A DNA stretch of 64,000 nt from positions 1-64,000 of the IMG/VR virus record IMGVR_UViG_3300003155_000005. One strand, written 5' to 3'. The notes under the pieces are model-generated. The model was not told where the DNA came from. It did not search any database and worked only from the letters and a program-made list of their open reading frames with translations. Positions 14,334 to 34,694 of this stretch are shown in pieces (positions within the stretch are counted from its first letter, which is position 1; every line of letters begins with the position of its first letter). The stretch comes from a virus. Position numbers and translations under genes: made by a program.

Positions 14334-17300
14334 ATGGCTGAACTAAGATCAAAGAAAAAGAAAGACGAATTACGTAAGAGAGTTGACAGACTTCCGACCT
14401 TCACAGAAAAAACTGAGGAAGAGTTAAGGAAGGAGTTGCTTGCTTCAACTATAGATGAAGAAACTGAAGAGTCCCCATATTATTATGAAGATAAAGTAGA
14501 AGTACATAAGAAAAGGACTGAAGGGTTATGAGATGTAATATTAGAAGATGAGATTCATTATTTTGATCCAGAATTGTCTTATGAAATAACAGGATATAGA
14601 CCTATTAATGAGACTGAAGGATTAGATTTTGATCCCACTCCTTTTATAGAAGTTGGGCAGGTATATCAGAGAACTGGAAGATACACTGCACATAAAAAAG
14701 GAGGCAAACCTTATGTGGACTTTTGAAGAGAACAGATAAGGCGTTGTGTTGAAGGTTATACAGTAGGGAAATATAGGGTTACAGGAGATCATTATTTCTT
14801 CTTAAACTTCTATAGAATGGGTATTGTAGATGATAAGAAAAAAGCAGGAGCTGGCTCAGAAGAATCTTTTCCATTTTTCACATCAAAGCAATACGAGTTT
14901 TTTCATTATGTAGAAATGTGCGAATATCTTAAAAAAGATGTAGTAGCATTAAAATCTCGAGCGGTAAACTAACCTGCCGCCTTATATAGTAATATGTAAG
15001 TAAAAATTCCGCAAAATCGGTAGAAGCTACGATAACTAAATATGTGATTTTATTACGATGACAAAACAAGAACAAATTAAATTTATAGAGGATAACTATC
15101 CCGAATATACAAATCATTTTAGCAAACGCTCTATTAGACATGATTTCTTTTCTGAAATTAAAACTGAGTTACAAGCATATTTATTAGGATTTTATGCTGC
15201 TGATGGTAGTATAAATGAAAAACGAAAAACTTTACGCATTCATTTATGTGATGTGGATTCTGATATAGTAAATATGTACAAAACATATATCAGCCAGGAT
15301 GCAAGAACCTTTATTCTACAAGAACATATTACAACTGGAAGAAATGGGATGAAAGTACAAGCACATAAATCATATGGCATTGATATAACCAGTACAAAAT
15401 TATGTGAGTCCCTAGTTAATCTAGGATTTGGATATAATAAAACATATGTGGAGCATAGTTTTCCAAAAATGGACCCCTCTCTTTTTAGGCACTTTATTAG
15501 GGGTTATTTTGATGGGGATGGTTCTATTACTGGAAGCTATCGTAAAGCTCAAGAAAATAGAAAAGAGAGAATGACTATGAATTTTACAATAGATTTTAAA
15601 AAGGCTCAATTAGCATTAGAATTCCAAAAAGAGTTTGCAAGAAGAGACATAAAATCCAGTGTAATATATTTAAAAAGAGATGATATGTATAGATTAACTA
15701 CAGCATCTATTCCCAACATTAAAAAGTTATTTCATTTCTTATATGATGATTGTAATTTTTATGGTAATAGAAAATATAAAAAATTTAGTTATTATGTTAA
15801 TACCGAGGTAAGTCAGTTGATTGCTGACCACCGTAACGCGTAGGAGATGATCGCTAGAAACAGAAATAATTCTCCCAAGAGTGCGGAACATCCATTTGGA
15901 TGAAAATGTACGCTGAACTTATAGGAAACTATAAGAACTATAGGATAAAAAGCCTATAGGATAACAAAAATTGAGGATTCTCAGAAATAGGAGCCTGTTT
16001 AGGAGTTAGACCTTTTATTACTACTAGAAAATTTAGAACAGTTTACACTGCCTATTCTGACACATATGTTGATGCTGTACTAGATAAATGTTGGTACCAG
16101 CTTAACTGATTAAGTAATAATACTGACGGAGGTATGAAACGTGTTCGACAGAAGATCGATAATATTAAACAAAAACGAGCTTCTAAAGTTGATAAAGACG
16201 GAGTAGAATCTGGACGTATGGCAGAAATAGAAGGAATTCCAGCAGATAATCCTAGAAAAGTTCGTGGTGATCGTTGTGATAGGCTGATGTTCGAAGAGTT
16301 TGGTTCTAATCCAGTATCTAGAACATCTTGAACCCAAGGAACTGCCCTTGTTGAAATTGGTGGTGTACGTAGAGGCATTAAGATTGGTTGGGGAACTGGT
16401 AGGGAATTAATTTAATTTATTATATTACAAGTAATTTTTATTAGTCAATGAAAAGAGAAAGTAAACAAACTGTTATAAATATTGCTATTCAAGAGTATTT
16501 GAACATCCCTGAAAGCGATAGAAGCTTAACTCAAATAGGAAGAAAATATGGAATTAAGCGTCAAACATTATCTAAATATTTAAAATTAAGAGGCTATGAA
16601 GTTATTAATTACCAAAATATTCATAGGCTAAATGAAACAATTTTTGATACAATAGATACTGAAGAAAAAGCATACTGATTAGGATTTTTATATGCTGATG
16701 GAAATATTAGTTCTGAAGGATTTAGATTAGAGATTAATTTATCAATAACAGATTTAAATCATATGAAAAAATTAGCTACTTTTTTAAACCTTACAAATGA
16801 TATTAGATTATCGGCAAATGGAGAAATTTGCAGGATTTCTGCAAGAAGTAAGCATTTATGGGAGCAGCTAAATATTAAGGGATGTACTCCTTGTAAAAGT
16901 CTAACTTTAAAATTTCCTAATGCTGCAATTTTTTCAAATTCACAATTAATCTATGATTTTATTCGAGGTTATTGTGATGGTGATGGATGTTTAACTGTCT
17001 ACAAAAAGAATAATTCTGTAGTAACAGAATTAAATTTTGTGGGAACCGAAAATTTTTTACTTGAGGTTGAAAAAAAATTAAATATTAAAGGATATATTAG
17101 GAATAAGAGTTCTATGAAATATATTAATAGAGCCTATTCTTTGAAATATTCTGGAGTTGCAGCAAGAAGGGTTGCAAGATTATTGTATGAAAAAGCTTCA
17201 ATATATTTAGATCGAAAATATAATAAATATAAATTATTCTGCCTCCTAGAAGAGGGATCTTCTAGAAGAAAATCGAGCAAAATCGGTGAAGGCTGAGATG

Positions 17301-18622
17301 CTAATACCGAGATAACTAATTAGATTGCAAAAGGCTAATTAGTATTGTAACGCGTAGATACTGAATAAATATAATGTATCCAAGAGTGTTCGACATCCAG
17401 AACGGATGAAAATGTACGCTGAACTTATGAGAATCAAATCATAAGAACTGCAGATAAAAAACTGCAGGATAACAAATTGGGAGACCAAGGCCCTTCATTA
17501 ACAGGATTATCTGAGATATTTAGTGATCCTAAAGCTAATAATGTCTTACCTTATAAGAACTTCTACTCCTCAGATGGAACTGTTCAATATACAGGATTTT
17601 TTATTCCTGCCTATACATTTATGTTGGGATCTGAATATACAGATCATCGGGGAGTTACAAATACAGAGAAAGCAAAAAAATATTATGAAGAGCAAAGAGC
17701 TGCTAAAAGTGGCAAAAGTCTTCTTGAATATTGTTCAGAATATTGTTTTACTCCAGCTGAAGCCTTATTAAGGCAGGGTGATAATATTTTTGATGCTATT
17801 GCTATTTCAGATAGAATTACCCAAATTAGAATACACAAAATGGGAATTAAACCTAGACGTGTAGCACTTCTTTGGGACAAAAGCGAAGGGGATGAAAGTT
17901 TAAACAAAGTAAAGGTTTATGATAAGGTGGATAGTAATATTCTTATCTATGAAGAGCCCATGTTAGATGATAAAGACCCTTATAAAAATTTATATGTAGC
18001 TGGGATAGACTCTATTGACCAAGGTACAGAAGATTCTGCAACTCAAAAAGATGTATCAGATTTTTGTATTGTAATAAAAAGAAGAGCCTATGGTTTAAAA
18101 GAGCCTAAGTATGTAGCTGTATATAAAGAAAGACCAAGAGATATTAGATTGGCGTATGACAATGCAATGAAATTATTAACTTGATATAATTGCAAAGCAT
18201 TACTGGAACACACCAAAATTAGTATCTTAACCTACTTTAAAAGCAAGAAAAAAGATAATCTTTTTATGAAACGTCCAAAATCTAGTCTTAGTGATATTAA
18301 GAGAGGTAATTCACAAATGATTGGAGTCCCTGCTACAGAAACTATTATAAAGCATGGATTGGAACTTATTAATACTTATATAAATGATTATTGTTATACA
18401 ATAGATTCTGATATGATTCTGGAACAATTATTAAATTATTCTTATGAAAATAAAAGAAAATATGATATTGTTGCAGCTATGAGTATGGCAGAAATCGCTG
18501 ATGAAGAGTTAATGGGATTTAATCCAAAACCTGCGCATAGTGTAGAAAAAGAATGGAAAGATTTTGGATGATTTACTAATTCAAAAGGTTATAAACAGTT
18601 TGGAGTTATTGGTGATGAATAA
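14334..18622 (+). CDS. terL: terminase large subunit, three exons: 14334..14965, 15974..16400, 17480..18622 (733 aa after splicing)
   Basis: Spliced product reads ...FPFFTSKQYEFFHYVEMCEYLKKDVVALKSRAV|GFSEIGACLG...DRLMFEEFG...IGWGTG|GDQGPSLTGL...YVAGIDSIDQG.... Exon lengths 632+427+1143 sum to 2202 nt (3 x 734). In-frame TGAs lie in exons 1-3. Ends at TAA 18620-18622. Confidence 0.85.
14966..15973 (+). mobile_element. group I intron 1 in terL (1008 nt)
   Basis: The 5' exon ends in U. GCGGU can pair with the intron's GCCGC (14975..14979) as a P1 helix with a U-G wobble. The intron ends ...AAAAATTG (terminal G). The 3' ~130 nt are closely similar to intron 2. Confidence 0.7.
15058..15843 (+). 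CDS. LAGLIDADG homing endonuclease (intron 1 encoded)
   Basis: Two motifs, LLGFYAADGSI and IRGYFDGDGSI. The ORF runs into the conserved intron core. Confidence 0.85.
   Translation: MTKQEQIKFIEDNYPEYTNHFSKRSIRHDFFSEIKTELQAYLLGFYAADGSINEKRKTLRIHLCDVDSDIVNMYKTYISQDARTFILQEHITTGRNGMKVQAHKSYGIDITSTKLCESLVNLGFGYNKTYVEHSFPKMDPSLFRHFIRGYFDGDGSITGSYRKAQENRKERMTMNFTIDFKKAQLALEFQKEFARRDIKSSVIYLKRDDMYRLTTASIPNIKKLFHFLYDDCNFYGNRKYKKFSYYVNTEVSQLIADHRNA
16401..17479 (+). mobile_element. group I intron 2 in terL (1079 nt)
   Basis: Splits W-G-T-G|G-D. The 5' exon ends in U and the intron ends ...ACAAATTG. Shares AATACCGAG, GTAACGCGTAG, CCAAGAGTG, GGATGAAAATGTACGCTGAACTTA and a hairpin plus GATAACAAA with intron 1. 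Confidence 0.7.
16448..17323 (+). CDS. LAGLIDADG homing endonuclease with N-terminal HTH (intron 2 encoded)
   Basis: Track ORFs 16448 and 16763 are joined by in-frame TGA 16676. Motifs are LGFLYADGNI and IRGYCDGDGCL. Read through TGA 17294 to TAG 17321-17323. Confidence 0.8.
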
Positions 18623-18920
18623 TTTAGAAGATAAAATACGAAATGTGATAAAAGAAGCTTTATGCTCAGAATATATTGGTAATTTAGATATATTGCATGA
18701 TGAGGATTCTTATACTTTAAAACTGGATTTAAATCAACATGAAGCTCCAATGTATTTTTCTTATCAAGGAAGTGAAGAAGGTTTTCTTGATTACTTATTA
18801 AGAGATTTAAGACAACGACAAATCGATCGTGCTAAGTATTATAAAGGAATAATGACAGATACTGGTAACGATGATATTTATTATATTGTACTAGAATGAA
18901 CAAAACAGAAATCCAATTAA
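18615..18920 (+). CDS. hypothetical protein (~100 aa)
   Basis: ATG 18615 overlaps the terL stop. The track ORF ends at TGA 18897-18899; under code 4 it ends at TAA 18918-18920. Confidence 0.45.
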
Positions 18921-33036: not shown

Positions 33037-34694
33037 ATGGACGTAGTAGAAAAACAGATTGTACATGAGTACGACGAAAATCACAAGGAGTATGCATCAA
33101 AAGGTGTTGCTGGTACTGGATTAGGCTTAATATACTAGGTCCTTATAATAGTAATATTATATGCAAAACTCCCTTAATTGCTGGAACCTCCAGAAATGGA
33201 CAATCAGCAGCTAAGCTTTATGTTCCCACAATACTTGTTTGTTCCAATTATTCTTTATATCTTTGTATATTAATAATTTAAATTTTTATTATGATAAGAG
33301 GTATAATTTATAAATATACATCACCTTCAGGTAAAGTGTATATTGGGCAAACAATTAATGAAAAGGATAGAAGAAAACACTTTTTAATTCAGAAACTTAG
33401 CTATGGCGGTATTAAAATTGATACTGCACGTGCAAAGTACAATCCAGAAAATTTTAAATATGAAATTTTGGAAACAAGATTTTATATGACGAAGAAAGCT
33501 GCTGCTAAAGAGTTAGATATATTAGAATCGTATTATATTGGCTTATATGATAGTTATAAATATGGTTATAATATGACACTTGGTGGCGGAACAACAACTG
33601 GATTAAAATTTACTGAAGAACAAAAAGAAAAATGTCGAAAGAGAATGTTAGAACATAATCCATTTAAAGGAAAACGACATACTCAACAGACAAAGAATAC
33701 TATCTCTAATGCTAATAGTATCCCTGTAATACAGATAGATCCAATAACAAATGAAGTAATTAAAGAATTTAAATCTGCAAGAGAAGCAGCAAGATCTTTT
33801 GGTAAAGAACGATCAAATTCTGAAATTATAAAAGTTTGTAAAGGATATATCTCTCCATCAGGAAGACATTATAATACAGCATTAGGTTTTAAATGGAAAT
33901 ATAAAGAAAGTTCAACGACTATCTCGGAAGAGAGTAGCACTAAGTAGTGCGAAATGGGGAGCATCCAAATTGGATGAAGATATAGTCTTAACTACATGTA
34001 TATATAAAGATGTAGAAGTTCATAAGAGAACTGCATAAGATTAACGACCTTATGTGAAAATATTGTAGGTATCGCTGGAACTGCTCTTGGACTTTTAGCT
34101 CTTAGTGGAAGAGGCTTATTTGGCCTTGGAAATGCAGGCAGTGCTGCAGCAGGTGCATTAGCAGCTGAAGCTATTACTGGAGGCCCTACGGCTTTCCAAG
34201 CTTGGCAACATTCTTGCAATGCTAAGTTAGCAGATCAAAAAGCACTTTATGATTTTGCTTTGTTATCAGCAAATGCTCGTTTTAATGATCGTCAAACGAT
34301 CAATTCAGAGATGTTTGGTTTATACAAAAGCCAAATTGATGCAGATTTCGGACTGTACAAAAATCAGAGAGACCAATTCGACGTATTAGCCGATCGTATT
34401 GGAAAACTTGAGACTGCTGCTGCTGTACAAGCTGCTGTAGAACCTTGGAGAAGTAAAGTAACTAAGATGGAGATTGCTAATGTAGCTGGCATGGTAGGAC
34501 TTGAAGCTGAGCGCAGAATGTGTGCTGACAATAAGATAGTAAATTATGCAAATAATACATTCTATCCTATTCGTATAGCTGCTGTTGAAGTAGGTACAGA
34601 TACAGTACAGCGTTCACTGTATAATCCACTTTGCCCTTGCTCAGGATACTCAAATAGCATCTTATTTGAGCCTACAACAACTCCTGCAGCTTAG
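33037..34694 (+). CDS. Gly/Ala-rich membrane-associated protein, two exons (about 33037..33127 and 34066..34694; ~239 aa)
   Basis: Exon 1 is MDVVEKQIVHEYDENHKEYASKGVAGTGLGL. Exon 2 is GIAGTALGLLALSGRGLFGLGNAGSAAAG...QAWQHSCNAKL..., continuous with track ORF 34260..34694. 91+629 = 720 nt. A junction 6 nt upstream (ending 33121) is also in frame. Confidence 0.6.
33128..34065 (+). mobile_element. group I intron 3 (~938 nt) carrying a GIY-YIG endonuclease
   Basis: Interrupts an otherwise continuous Gly-rich reading frame. Ends ...AAAATATTG like the terL introns. The 3' segment CATCCAAATTGGATGAAGAT...ATAAGAGAACTGCATAAG resembles their 3' cores, and the 5' CCTTATAATAGTAATAT resembles intron 1. Confidence 0.6.
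33291..33947 (+). CDS. GIY-YIG homing endonuclease (intron 3 encoded)
   Basis: MIRGIIYKYTSPSGKVYIGQT...YGYN has the GIY..YIG motifs plus a C-terminal NUMOD/IENR-like DNA-binding repeat (EFKSAREAARSFG). Confidence 0.8.
   Translation: MIRGIIYKYTSPSGKVYIGQTINEKDRRKHFLIQKLSYGGIKIDTARAKYNPENFKYEILETRFYMTKKAAAKELDILESYYIGLYDSYKYGYNMTLGGGTTTGLKFTEEQKEKCRKRMLEHNPFKGKRHTQQTKNTISNANSIPVIQIDPITNEVIKEFKSAREAARSFGKERSNSEIIKVCKGYISPSGRHYNTALGFKWKYKESSTTISEESSTK

Follow-up and report, generated by a model that had tools for sequence, protein, structure and literature searches.

The locus at positions 33037 to 34694 of the window (the whole 64,000-nucleotide stretch of viral DNA analyzed here) raises two questions: whether a short open reading frame (ORF), a downstream Gly-rich frame and the endonuclease gene between them are separate genes or one gene interrupted by an intron, and, in the latter case, whether that intron is a further copy of the two introns found in the terL gene of the same genome. 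A preliminary description of the sequence had proposed an intron whose junction was uncertain (33127 or 33121) and had assigned it to the same family as the terL introns.

Results and Discussion

The interrupted gene and its splice junction

In a large crAss-like gut phage, the segment 33128..34065 splits a conserved gene within the virion module that is homologous to gp61 ("putative tail protein") of p-crAssphage. Exon 1 (33037..33127, plus strand) was delimited by the ORF list, the uninterrupted homologues P0001-P0024 and crAssphage gp61, and DNA alignment to the relatives L004 and L005. Its product is MDVV...KGVAGTGLG followed by the first base of a Leu codon, and its final base, U33127, is the 5' splice-site U; the frame opened at 33037 ends at a TAG at 33136-33138, where the preliminary description had placed its stop. 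As that description had also noted, the Gly-rich frame resumes downstream, after 34065, and continues to 34694 as exon 2 (34066..34694, plus strand), which is supported by the ORF list and by intron-less alleles. Exon 2 opens with the TA that completes the Leu codon, continues with GIAGTALGLLALSGRGLFG and ends with TTTPAA and a stop.

The uncertainty over the junction was settled by the intron-less alleles. The option 33121/34066, which an ungapped alignment with gp61 of p-crAssphage and with Dulem virus 41 had seemed to favor, would delete the residues GL, whereas intron-less relatives that are 92-99% identical carry the unbroken sequence ...KGVAGTGLGLGIAGTALG... The alleles P0004 (99% amino acid identity) and P0001 (92%) read GLGLGIAG, which only 33127/34066 reproduces, and the 33121 option was therefore rejected. 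At the DNA level, exactly 33128-34065 is absent from L004 (99% amino acid identity), where the intron-less target sequence is GGCACTGGCTTAGGTCTTGGTATCGC, and from L005 (92%). With the exon 1 end ...GGATTAGGCT joined to the exon 2 start TAGGTATCGC, the insertion point lies one base into a Leu codon, within the N-terminal Gly-rich motif GLGL/GIAGTALG, and the joined exons predict a protein of 239 amino acids. The continuous coding sequence left after intron removal is matched by L004, L005 and 17 further homologues.

The same homologues bear on the reading in which two independent small genes flank a free-standing GIY-YIG gene and no intron exists. Free-standing GIY-YIG genes are common in phages, and the GenBank records of Dulem virus 41 and cr128_1 annotate "hypothetical protein" and "endonuclease" as distinct genes. 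However, in dozens of homologues a single protein is encoded straight through the junction, which shows 33037..33127 and 34066..34694 to be one gene, and the flanks of the endonuclease ORF form a complete group I ribozyme. The intron-less alleles refute this reading, and we regard it as extremely unlikely.

Structure and group I identity of the intron

The assignment of 33128..34065 (938 nt, plus strand) as an IA2-like group I intron draws on the intron-less alleles, partial Rfam hits, similarity to phage introns, a covariance model designated R1, and folding. All core helices from P1 to P10, including P7.1, P7.2, P9.1 and P9.2, could be drawn, and an ORF-deleted intron construct gave a fold z of -3.99. 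P1 (33124..33141, plus strand), recovered in the minimum free energy (MFE) fold, pairs the exon/intron sequence GGCU/UA (33124-33129) with the internal guide UAGGUC (33136-33141). It is short, comprising four exon pairs, two of which are wobbles, and two intron pairs, and it shows a compensatory change in L019, where exon GGAU pairs with guide GUCC. A U33127.G33138 wobble lies at the splice site, the terminal G is G34065, and a P10 is possible between CUA at 33135-33137 and the exon-2 UAG at 34066-34068. P2 (33144..33161, plus strand) is directly readable as the hairpin UAUAAUA-GUAA-UAUUAUA, and also occurs in the intron of Bacillus phage AR9 and in L019.

The next segment (33169..33221, plus strand) contains the P3 5' strand (33169-33174), P4 (33178-33184 / 33204-33210), P5 (33189-33200, with a GAAA loop) and the 5' strands of P6 and P6a (33210-33221). 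It was identified by Rfam alignment, which covers model positions 60-140, by the MFE fold, and by the motif AATTGCTGG..AATCAGCAGC, which occurs in over 120 viral contigs. The 3' catalytic core, from P6a' to J8/7 (33901..33987, plus strand), was placed by R1 and covariation; here P6a' (33901-33906) is followed by J6/7, P7 (33917-33922 / 33982-33987), P7.1 (33923-33925 / 33930-33932), P7.2 (33937-33941 / 33946-33950), P3' (33956-33961), P8 (33962-33966 / 33972-33976) and the J8/7 sequence AAGAU. P9 (33992-33997 / 34010-34015), P9.1 (34018-34021 / 34028-34031), P9.2 (34033-34039 / 34049-34055) and the 3' tail complete the intron (33992..34065, plus strand), on the basis of the MFE fold, covariation in P9, and alignment with Staphylococcus phage and AR9 introns.

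The window intron scored 115 bits against R1. In the R1 alignment, 94.6% of cells were paired and 19 of 25 pairs showed compensatory changes, with none of 500 shuffles reaching the observed pairing; this alignment was fitted to the model, and the pairing counts are therefore inflated. R1 covers P7-P9 only, so that formal covariation is limited to P7, P7.1, P7.2, P8 and P9. The IA2-like subgroup is defined by an additional pair of helices, P7.1 and P7.2, that separate P7 from P3'; both are present in the window intron (33923-33932 and 33937-33950), with compensatory changes in all eight of their pairs across 15 sequences.

At the Rfam gathering threshold no match was obtained anywhere in the window. 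An E-value search with Intron_gpI (RF00028) detected both halves of the intron on the plus strand, P4-P6 at 17.7 bits and P7-P9 at 25.4 bits (E=3.6e-4 in the local search), neither reaching the gathering score of 50 bits. This shortfall arises because a 680-nt ORF-bearing loop splits the model, and does not reflect a missing feature. We conclude that 33128..34065 is, very probably, a mobile IA2-like group I intron (td/nrdB/Twort type) that carries a GIY-YIG gene within the gp61-like gene and is predicted to splice.

The intron-encoded endonuclease

The GIY-YIG gene that had been described at 33291..33947 (plus strand) is present as a 218-aa homing-endonuclease ORF in the P6a loop and belongs to an I-TevI-like family, as indicated by Pfam, PHROG and a profile match to I-TevI. 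Its last approximately 15 codons overlap P6a', P6', J6/7, P7, P7.1 and P7.2. PHROG homing-endonuclease families matched the protein with E=7e-24. Taken as a single protein, it scored 15.9 bits against Pfam GIY-YIG (PF01541), under the cut-off of 22.6, and a single-sequence phmmer search of the PDB returned nothing. The family to which it belongs was more informative: PF01541 matched three of the seven ORF-family members at E<=0.01 (best 3e-9), and a profile of the seven sequences matched the I-TevI catalytic domain in the PDB (1LN0/1MK0, E=1e-8). This match extends over I-TevI residues 2-93 and spans the GIY, YIG, Arg, Glu and Asn positions, which in the 218-aa protein are IIY 5-7, YIG 17-19, RR 27-28, E79 and N94. 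Additionally, residues 144-175 matched Pfam NUMOD1 with 23.7 bits against a cut-off of 22.8. The predicted protein combines an I-TevI-like GIY-YIG nuclease at its N terminus with a NUMOD1 DNA-binding module at its C terminus, and would act as a homing endonuclease.

Decayed and unusual relatives

Damaged copies in some relatives show that the intron decays in this lineage. L012-L014 have lost the 3' ribozyme along with ~97 nt from the start of exon 2, the endonucleases of L021, L025 and cr128_1 are truncated, and that of L018 is frameshifted. Such copies make it conceivable that the window intron is itself a decayed relic that no longer splices, which would leave the host gene a pseudogene in this phage. 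Against this stand the intact core helices of the window intron and the L018 ribozyme, which is 96% identical to it and differs in P7.2 by a compensated change. Both exons also keep an open frame, 90-99% identical to intron-less homologues, and the endonuclease ORF is untruncated and keeps every catalytic position. A relic is accordingly very improbable, and an intron predicted to splice is the reading that we retain.

Three further sequences considered as intron-bearing alleles proved to be an inversion (P0027), a frameshift (P0011) and a deleted intron remnant (P0042). In cr128_1, exon 1 and the 5' intron half are present and exon 2 is not nearby. Trans-splicing or a very long intron was considered for this phage and dismissed, since the 3' ribozyme half ~2.2 kb downstream belongs to an intron of the major capsid gene.

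Closest phage introns and known systems

The 3' core matched introns in 327 phage records. These include T-even nrdB, matched by blastn at that locus, the gene for DNA polymerase in T7-like Yersinia phages, introns of Staphylococcus phages that are annotated as Intron_gpI, and the spliced RNA polymerase beta gene of AR9. Members of the R1 training set scored 77-115 bits, including three Staphylococcus-phage introns at 95-112; outside it, three AR9 introns and L053 scored 55-71 bits and a fourth Staphylococcus-phage intron, St1, scored 37. The closest ribozymes in annotated phage records, at 72-78% identity, are those of Staphylococcus Twort/K-like phages and of the RNA-polymerase beta introns of Bacillus phages AR9 and PBS1. 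Both halves of the window ribozyme are matched by the AR9 intron, which has the same P2 hairpin (CCCTTATAATAGAAATATTATAAG). Unlike the window intron, the Staphylococcus and AR9 introns are mostly ORF-less or encode HNH enzymes (AR9_g190), and they reside in other host genes and phage families. The endonuclease thus varies on this ribozyme lineage in other phages, with HNH or no ORF at the P6 position, and variation of this kind on such a lineage is long established.

The T4 td intron, which encodes I-TevI, and the T-even nrdB introns share with the window intron P7.1/P7.2 between P7 and P3', P9.1/P9.2, an endonuclease ORF in the P6a loop, and the combination of a GIY-YIG nuclease with a separate DNA-binding module; the 3' tail presumably resembles that of td as well. 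The window intron differs from them in its host, a crAss virion-module gene and not one of nucleotide metabolism, and its endonuclease differs from I-TevI in having a NUMOD1-type DNA-binding module and an ORF whose 3' end extends into the core, covering P6a' to P7.2.

No close relative was returned from phage records by megablast with 24 kb of the window. Zeta-group crAss-like phages have been described as having genomes of 145-192 kb, using TGA as a sense codon and carrying as many as 14 group I introns each, recognized by endonuclease domains (Yutin et al. 2021, PMC7886860). The passages searched there name the MCP, PolB, primase, TerL and RNAP genes, and no mention of the gp61-like gene was seen in them. 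The window phage fits the group as described there, with relatives on contigs of 170-178 kb, TGA codons in frame within terL and three introns across the 64 kb, and we infer that it belongs to the Zeta group. A scan for a tRNA suppressing TGA found none within the 64-kb window.

Relation to the terL introns

Intron A of terL (14966..15973, plus strand) carries a LAGLIDADG ORF (15058-15843) in the P5 loop and is supported by an uninterrupted spliced terL, Pfam LAGLIDADG_3, an R1 score of 30.3 bits and alignment. In intron B (16401..17479, plus strand; R1 25.7 bits), the LAGLIDADG ORF lies between P1 and P3 (16448 to ~17323) and contains two TGA codons in frame. The preliminary description regarded the gp61-like gene intron as a third copy of these, in which a GIY-YIG gene had replaced the LAGLIDADG gene on a single scaffold within this genome, and took this as direct evidence of endonuclease module swapping.

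The resemblance between the intron ends on which that view was built is real and above chance. The 5' motif CCTTATAATAGTAATAT at 33141-33157 has a terL counterpart at 14980-14995, and the 3' motif CATCCAAATTGGATGAAGAT at 33962-33981 has one at 15889-15907. The former corresponds to the 3' end of the internal guide plus P2, whose hairpin is the 5' motif singled out earlier, and the latter to P8 plus J8/7. Blastn aligned the window intron with the terL introns over 73 nt (E=4e-4), and the terL introns were the sole other R1 matches above noise in the window, the remainder scoring 17.6 bits or less. The order of core elements is the same, P8 is near-identical (CAUCC..GGAUG), the J8/7, J6/7 (AAC) and P9 layouts are similar, and the differences in P7 and P3 are compensated ones, in keeping with a homologous architecture.

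This resemblance is nevertheless weaker than that to introns of unrelated phages. For the 3' catalytic domain, z was 12-22 with the introns of Staphylococcus phages, AR9 and Dulem virus 41, compared with 4.1 and 2.6 for the terL introns, which score 16.5 against each other. The R1 scores of AR9, L053 and St1, all outside training, likewise exceed those of the terL introns, that of St1 by a smaller margin, and the P2 and P8 motifs recur in AR9 and L019. The P3, P7 and P4-P6 sequences differ, those of P4-P6 being unrelated; the terL type has P7 GCGUAC and P3 UUCCGC. The terL introns have a single helix between P7 and P3' and lack P9.2, and Rfam Intron_gpI did not match them even at E<=5. Blastn with the core of a terL intron brought up phage introns of another set, most of them in terminase genes, the closest being those of Staphylococcus, Clostridioides and other crAss-like phages.

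Judged by sequence, the terL introns belong to group I and have a recognizably similar core but are of a different lineage from the window intron, and the claim of a common scaffold is not supported. Their endonucleases are LAGLIDADG enzymes where the window intron has a GIY-YIG enzyme, and the three ORFs lie in three different places: that of the window intron in L6a, that of intron A in L5 and that of intron B between P1 and P3. Endonucleases in three loops of separate intron lineages indicate independent invasions and not a swap on one scaffold, which we consider very improbable. Independent invasion of group I intron loops by endonucleases is an established process.

Proposed splicing and homing

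In the proposed mechanism, exon GGCU would pair with guide GGUC to form P1, in which the U33127.G33138 wobble would mark the 5' splice site. The attack after U33127 would come from a P7-bound free guanosine, the guide would hold exon 2 through P10 (UAG/CUA), and the exon-1 3'-OH would then attack after the terminal G34065, joining the exons for the 239-aa protein. The endonuclease would cut intron-less alleles near the insertion site in co-infecting phages, and repair would copy the intron together with ~14 nt of upstream exon.

The same intron occupies the same site in L018 (on a 171-kb contig), L019 and L020, and its presence or absence is polymorphic among near-identical phages. Around the junction, 5 of 16 bases differ from L004, compared with 18 of ~1155 outside it. 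A second genetic background, L012, carries an identical intron-plus flank (GGTACTGGATTAGGCT), and L005, the intron-less sister of L012, differs. The changes clustered at the junction are synonymous and travel with the intron, a linkage that suggests homing.

Two types of insertion occur in the Gly-rich motif. In the window, L018 and L019, the intron is inserted at T/TA GGT and has the P2 hairpin; in Dulem virus 41 and cr128_1, it is inserted after CTG GGT, lacks P2 and has the guide GCUCAG. The internal guide matches its own exon context in both types, and the intron-linked exon flank occurs in two genetic backgrounds. These observations could mean that the motif is a homing hot-spot in which two sister intron/GIY-YIG lineages inserted 5 nt apart, a tentative reading to which we give slightly less than an even chance. 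If true, it would be a case from nature in which an intron, together with its endonuclease, was retargeted inside a single motif, and in which homing continues among the crAss-like phages of the gut.

For the intron of the gp61-like gene, the present analysis defines where the exons join, how the ribozyme is built and which alleles lack the intron. Intron-dense Zeta crAss-like genomes have already been described (PMC7886860), and the window intron is an ordinary element for such phages that leaves the understanding of introns and homing endonucleases unchanged. Its value for annotation is practical: public records split the gp61-like gene into two to three "hypothetical protein" or "endonuclease" genes (Dulem virus 41, cr128_1), as do gene callers in metagenome assemblies, and because the exact junction is known, the full 239-aa product can be predicted. 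Additionally, the presence or absence of the intron, combined with its linked exon flank, provides a strain-level marker, and the pattern of intron and flank hints at DNA exchange by homing among co-infecting gut phages.

Identification of the interrupted gene and its junction

Exon 1 of the gp61-like gene starts at 33037, and its unspliced reading ends at a TAG at 33136-33138, while the Gly-rich frame is picked up again right after 34065 and extends to 34694. A protein query with the joined exons returned about 2000 homologues, many of them single uninterrupted proteins with 100% query coverage, including p-crAssphage KP06_gp61 ('putative tail protein'), which confirmed the preliminary description of the two ORFs as one interrupted gene. 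Of the two junctions proposed there, 33127/34066 and 33121/34066, only the former was retained. The nearest uninterrupted homologues, P0004 (99% identity) and P0001 (92%), both read ...ASKGVAGTGLGLGIAGTALGLLAL..., a reading reproduced only by the 33127-34066 join with the junction codon T|TA (Leu). The 33121 junction was ruled out, as 'GL' would be lost relative to these proteins. The result was corroborated by DNA alignment to the window of the intron-less contigs L004 and L005, which lack exactly 33128-34065 (938 nt). The base before the intron is U, and the last intron base is G.

Two apparent structural variants of the gene were also observed. The 99%-identical intron-less allele (L004:1031) lacks 78 nt (26 codons; window 34346-34423) in the repeated FGLYK(S/N)Q..D region of exon 2, reflecting either repeat-mediated length variation or assembly collapse. 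In a 134-kb Logan contig (L015:3070-3560), from a phage otherwise near-identical, the interior of the gene runs in the opposite orientation to its ends, owing either to a genuine inversion or to an artefact of assembly.

Evidence for a group I ribozyme

The intron at 33128-34065 is a group I ribozyme, supported by partial Rfam matches, similarity to phage introns, its fold and a covariance model. Rfam Intron_gpI gave no match to the element at the gathering score; + strand matches were obtained to the 5' half (P4-P5-P6, 33179-33225, 17.7 bits) and, in a local search, to the 3' half (P7-P3'-P8-P7'-P9, 33860-34008, 25.4 bits, E=3.6e-4). Searches with blastn retrieved introns of many phages, including Staphylococcus phage introns annotated as Intron_gpI, and in Bacillus phage AR9, whose RNA-polymerase beta gene is spliced, introns of that gene matched both halves. 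The 3' core alone matched 327 phage records, amongst them the T-even nrdB locus and the DNA-polymerase region of T7-like Yersinia phages.

An RNA in which a tetraloop stood in for the ORF loop folded at -71.7 kcal/mol (z=-3.99) and contained P1, P2 (partly, as a longer helix), P3, P4, P5, P6a, P7.1, P7.2, P8, P9, P9.1 and P9.2. P7 (GACUAU 33917-33922 / AUAGUC 33982-33987, + strand) forms the expected pseudoknot with P3. P1 pairs GGCU|UA with UAGGUC and includes the wobble U33127.G33138, P10 pairs UAG with CUA, and P6a pairs 33216-33221 with 33901-33906. L019 has the intron at this site too, with GGAU in its exon and GUCC in its guide, so that the change in P1 is compensated.

A covariance model (R1) spanning P7 to P9, trained on seven family members but not on the terL introns, scored the window intron at 115 bits. 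Amongst introns outside training, AR9 and L053 scored 55-71 bits and a fourth Staphylococcus-phage intron 37. In a 15-sequence alignment fitted to R1, which favours pairing, 94.6% of cells were paired and 19/25 pairs carried both-side changes, a level of pairing approached by 0/500 shuffles and by no slid register.

The intron-encoded endonuclease

The GIY-YIG gene previously noted within the intron (33291-33947, 218 aa) was verified by its assignment to homing-endonuclease families in PHROGs (E=7e-24) and by a profile of seven relatives matching the I-TevI catalytic domain (1LN0, 1MK0; E=1e-8, residues 2-93) across the GIY, YIG, Arg, Glu and Asn positions. In Pfam, NUMOD1 was over threshold and GIY-YIG under it. 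The ORF starts within the P6a loop, and its final ~15 codons traverse P6a', J6/7, P7 and P7.1 and reach into P7.2. Conservation of the C-terminal peptide ...KWKYKESSTTI in Dulem virus 41 and L018, which extends to the DNA sequence, is probably due to this overlap with the ribozyme core.

The HNH enzymes of related introns in L070 and in the Lactococcus-phage-like IMG/VR contigs L053 and L048 share this C-terminal NUMOD1 / ...GFKWKYKE module, so that their DNA-binding module is homologous to that of the GIY-YIG enzyme and their nuclease domain different.

Comparison with the terL introns

The terL gene is continuous, with TGA read as Trp, when spliced at 14965|15974 and 16400|17480, which establishes both insertions as real introns; each has a LAGLIDADG ORF. 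The motif pairs said to be common with a terL intron were found at 33141-33157 / 14980-14995 and 33962-33981 / 15889-15907. An R1 scan of the 64-kb window scored the terL introns at 30.3 and 25.7 bits against noise of up to 17.6 bits, and they resemble the gp61-like-gene intron in general core layout, in a near-identical P8 and in that the differences in P7 (GCGUAC in terL) and P3 are compensated.

The further claim of one ribozyme scaffold from the same family was not upheld. The 3' domain of the gp61-like-gene intron gave z = 12-22 against the Staphylococcus phage, AR9 and Dulem introns and only 4.1 and 2.6 against the terL introns, which gave 16.5 against each other. Neither terL intron matched Rfam, and their blastn relatives were a different set, mainly terminase-gene introns. 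The P2 motif common to the terL and gp61-like-gene introns also occurs in AR9 and L019.

Nor did the proposed endonuclease module swap stand, given two intron lineages and ORFs in three different places. The ORF of the gp61-like-gene intron is in L6a; in terL, that of intron A lies in L5 (in alignment with intron B, the 5' and 3' parts of A fall on opposite sides of B's P5 loop) and that of intron B between P1 and P3. Such a pattern is consistent with endonuclease genes having invaded the two lineages independently on three occasions, and not with a swap.

The terL introns A (14966-15973) and B (16401-17479) are sister ribozymes (81% identity, 3' domain), and their LAGLIDADG genes, in the P5 loop and between P1 and P3, share 26% identity. 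The usual pair at the group I 5' splice site is U.G; the best drawable P1 of intron B has U-A there (ACUGGU/AUUAGU).

Endonuclease variation on one group I ribozyme lineage is long-established, and it does exist on that of the gp61-like-gene intron, in other phages. In 80 IMG/VR loci sharing its P4-P5 signature, 87 matches were obtained; 43 of them were ORF-less and nine had a P6-P7 insert. Most of the inserts checked against Pfam encode HNH_3 or HNH enzymes, and NUMOD1, as in the GIY-YIG enzyme, is present in some. AR9 carries an HNH gene at the P6-P7 position.

Signs of mobility and decay among relatives

The same intron occupies the same site in L018 (a 171-kb contig) and L019/L020. Between the window and intron-less L004, 5/16 junction-flanking bases differ, all synonymously (GGT/GGC, GGA/GGC, GGC/GGT, TTA/CTT), against 18/~1155 away from the junction. 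L012, which carries an intron remnant in the P0001 genetic background, has the same exon-1 flank as the window (GGTACTGGATTAGGCT), while that of its intron-less sister L005 is GGTACTGGTCTTGGACTT; thus, the flank moves together with the intron. Such linkage is expected because of co-conversion in homing and the need for P1 pairing, and we infer that it reflects homing.

Several relatives carried degraded copies. L012:2880-3040, and likewise L013 and L014 (ENA contigs, three samples), retains the intron-linked flank and the 5' intron half with a short ORF-less P6 hairpin, and lacks the stretch that begins just past P7 and takes in the opening ~97 nt of exon 2 (window ~33927-34162), a deletion that would yield an N-terminally truncated gp61-like gene. 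This allele is probably real, as it is present on eight contigs. Exon 1, the 5' intron half and a truncated GIY-YIG gene were found in cr128_1 (Steigviridae; L009:2365-3002) and in L021 and L025 (IMG/VR); neither a 3' ribozyme nor exon 2 was found close by. In cr128_1 the genes following are unrelated, and tblastn found no exon-2 homologue in its genome; these copies look like relics of the element. In the nearest intron-bearing relative (89% identity), the GIY-YIG gene is frameshifted close to its 5' end (L018:2501-2600), and the ribozyme is intact with a compensated change in P7.2, so that the endonuclease may be starting to decay within a still-functional intron.

Dulem virus 41 (L001:1834/2848) and cr128_1 (L009:~2478) carry a sister intron/GIY-YIG lineage 5 nt downstream of window 33127/34066, in the Gly-rich motif after CTG GGT|, with the window lineage at T|TA GGT. 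The sister lineage has its own guide (P1 CUGGGU/GCUCAG, P10 AUAGU/ACUAU) and is without the P2 hairpin; the endonucleases of the two lineages share 44-48% identity. This lineage, 5 nt away with a guide matched to its own exon, is the most interesting residue of the analysis.

Phage group and genetic code

Several in-frame TGAs in terL (window 14540-18900) and two in the intron B LAGLIDADG gene (16448-17323) are apparently read as Trp. No in-frame TGA occurs in the gp61-like gene, the GIY-YIG gene or the remaining LAGLIDADG gene (15058-15843), and no suppressor tRNA was found within the 64-kb window. According to Yutin et al. 2021 (PMC7886860; see also PMC12386605), Zeta-group crAss-like phages have reassigned stop codons, genomes of 145-192 kb and as many as 14 group I introns in a genome. 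On these sequence features the window appears to match that group, with relatives on 170-178 kb contigs, sense TGA in terL and one LAGLIDADG gene, and three introns in 64 kb. Altogether, the evolutionary claim of the preliminary description is an over-reach; its intron detection is correct, and the element, now mapped precisely, is an ordinary one for this phage group.
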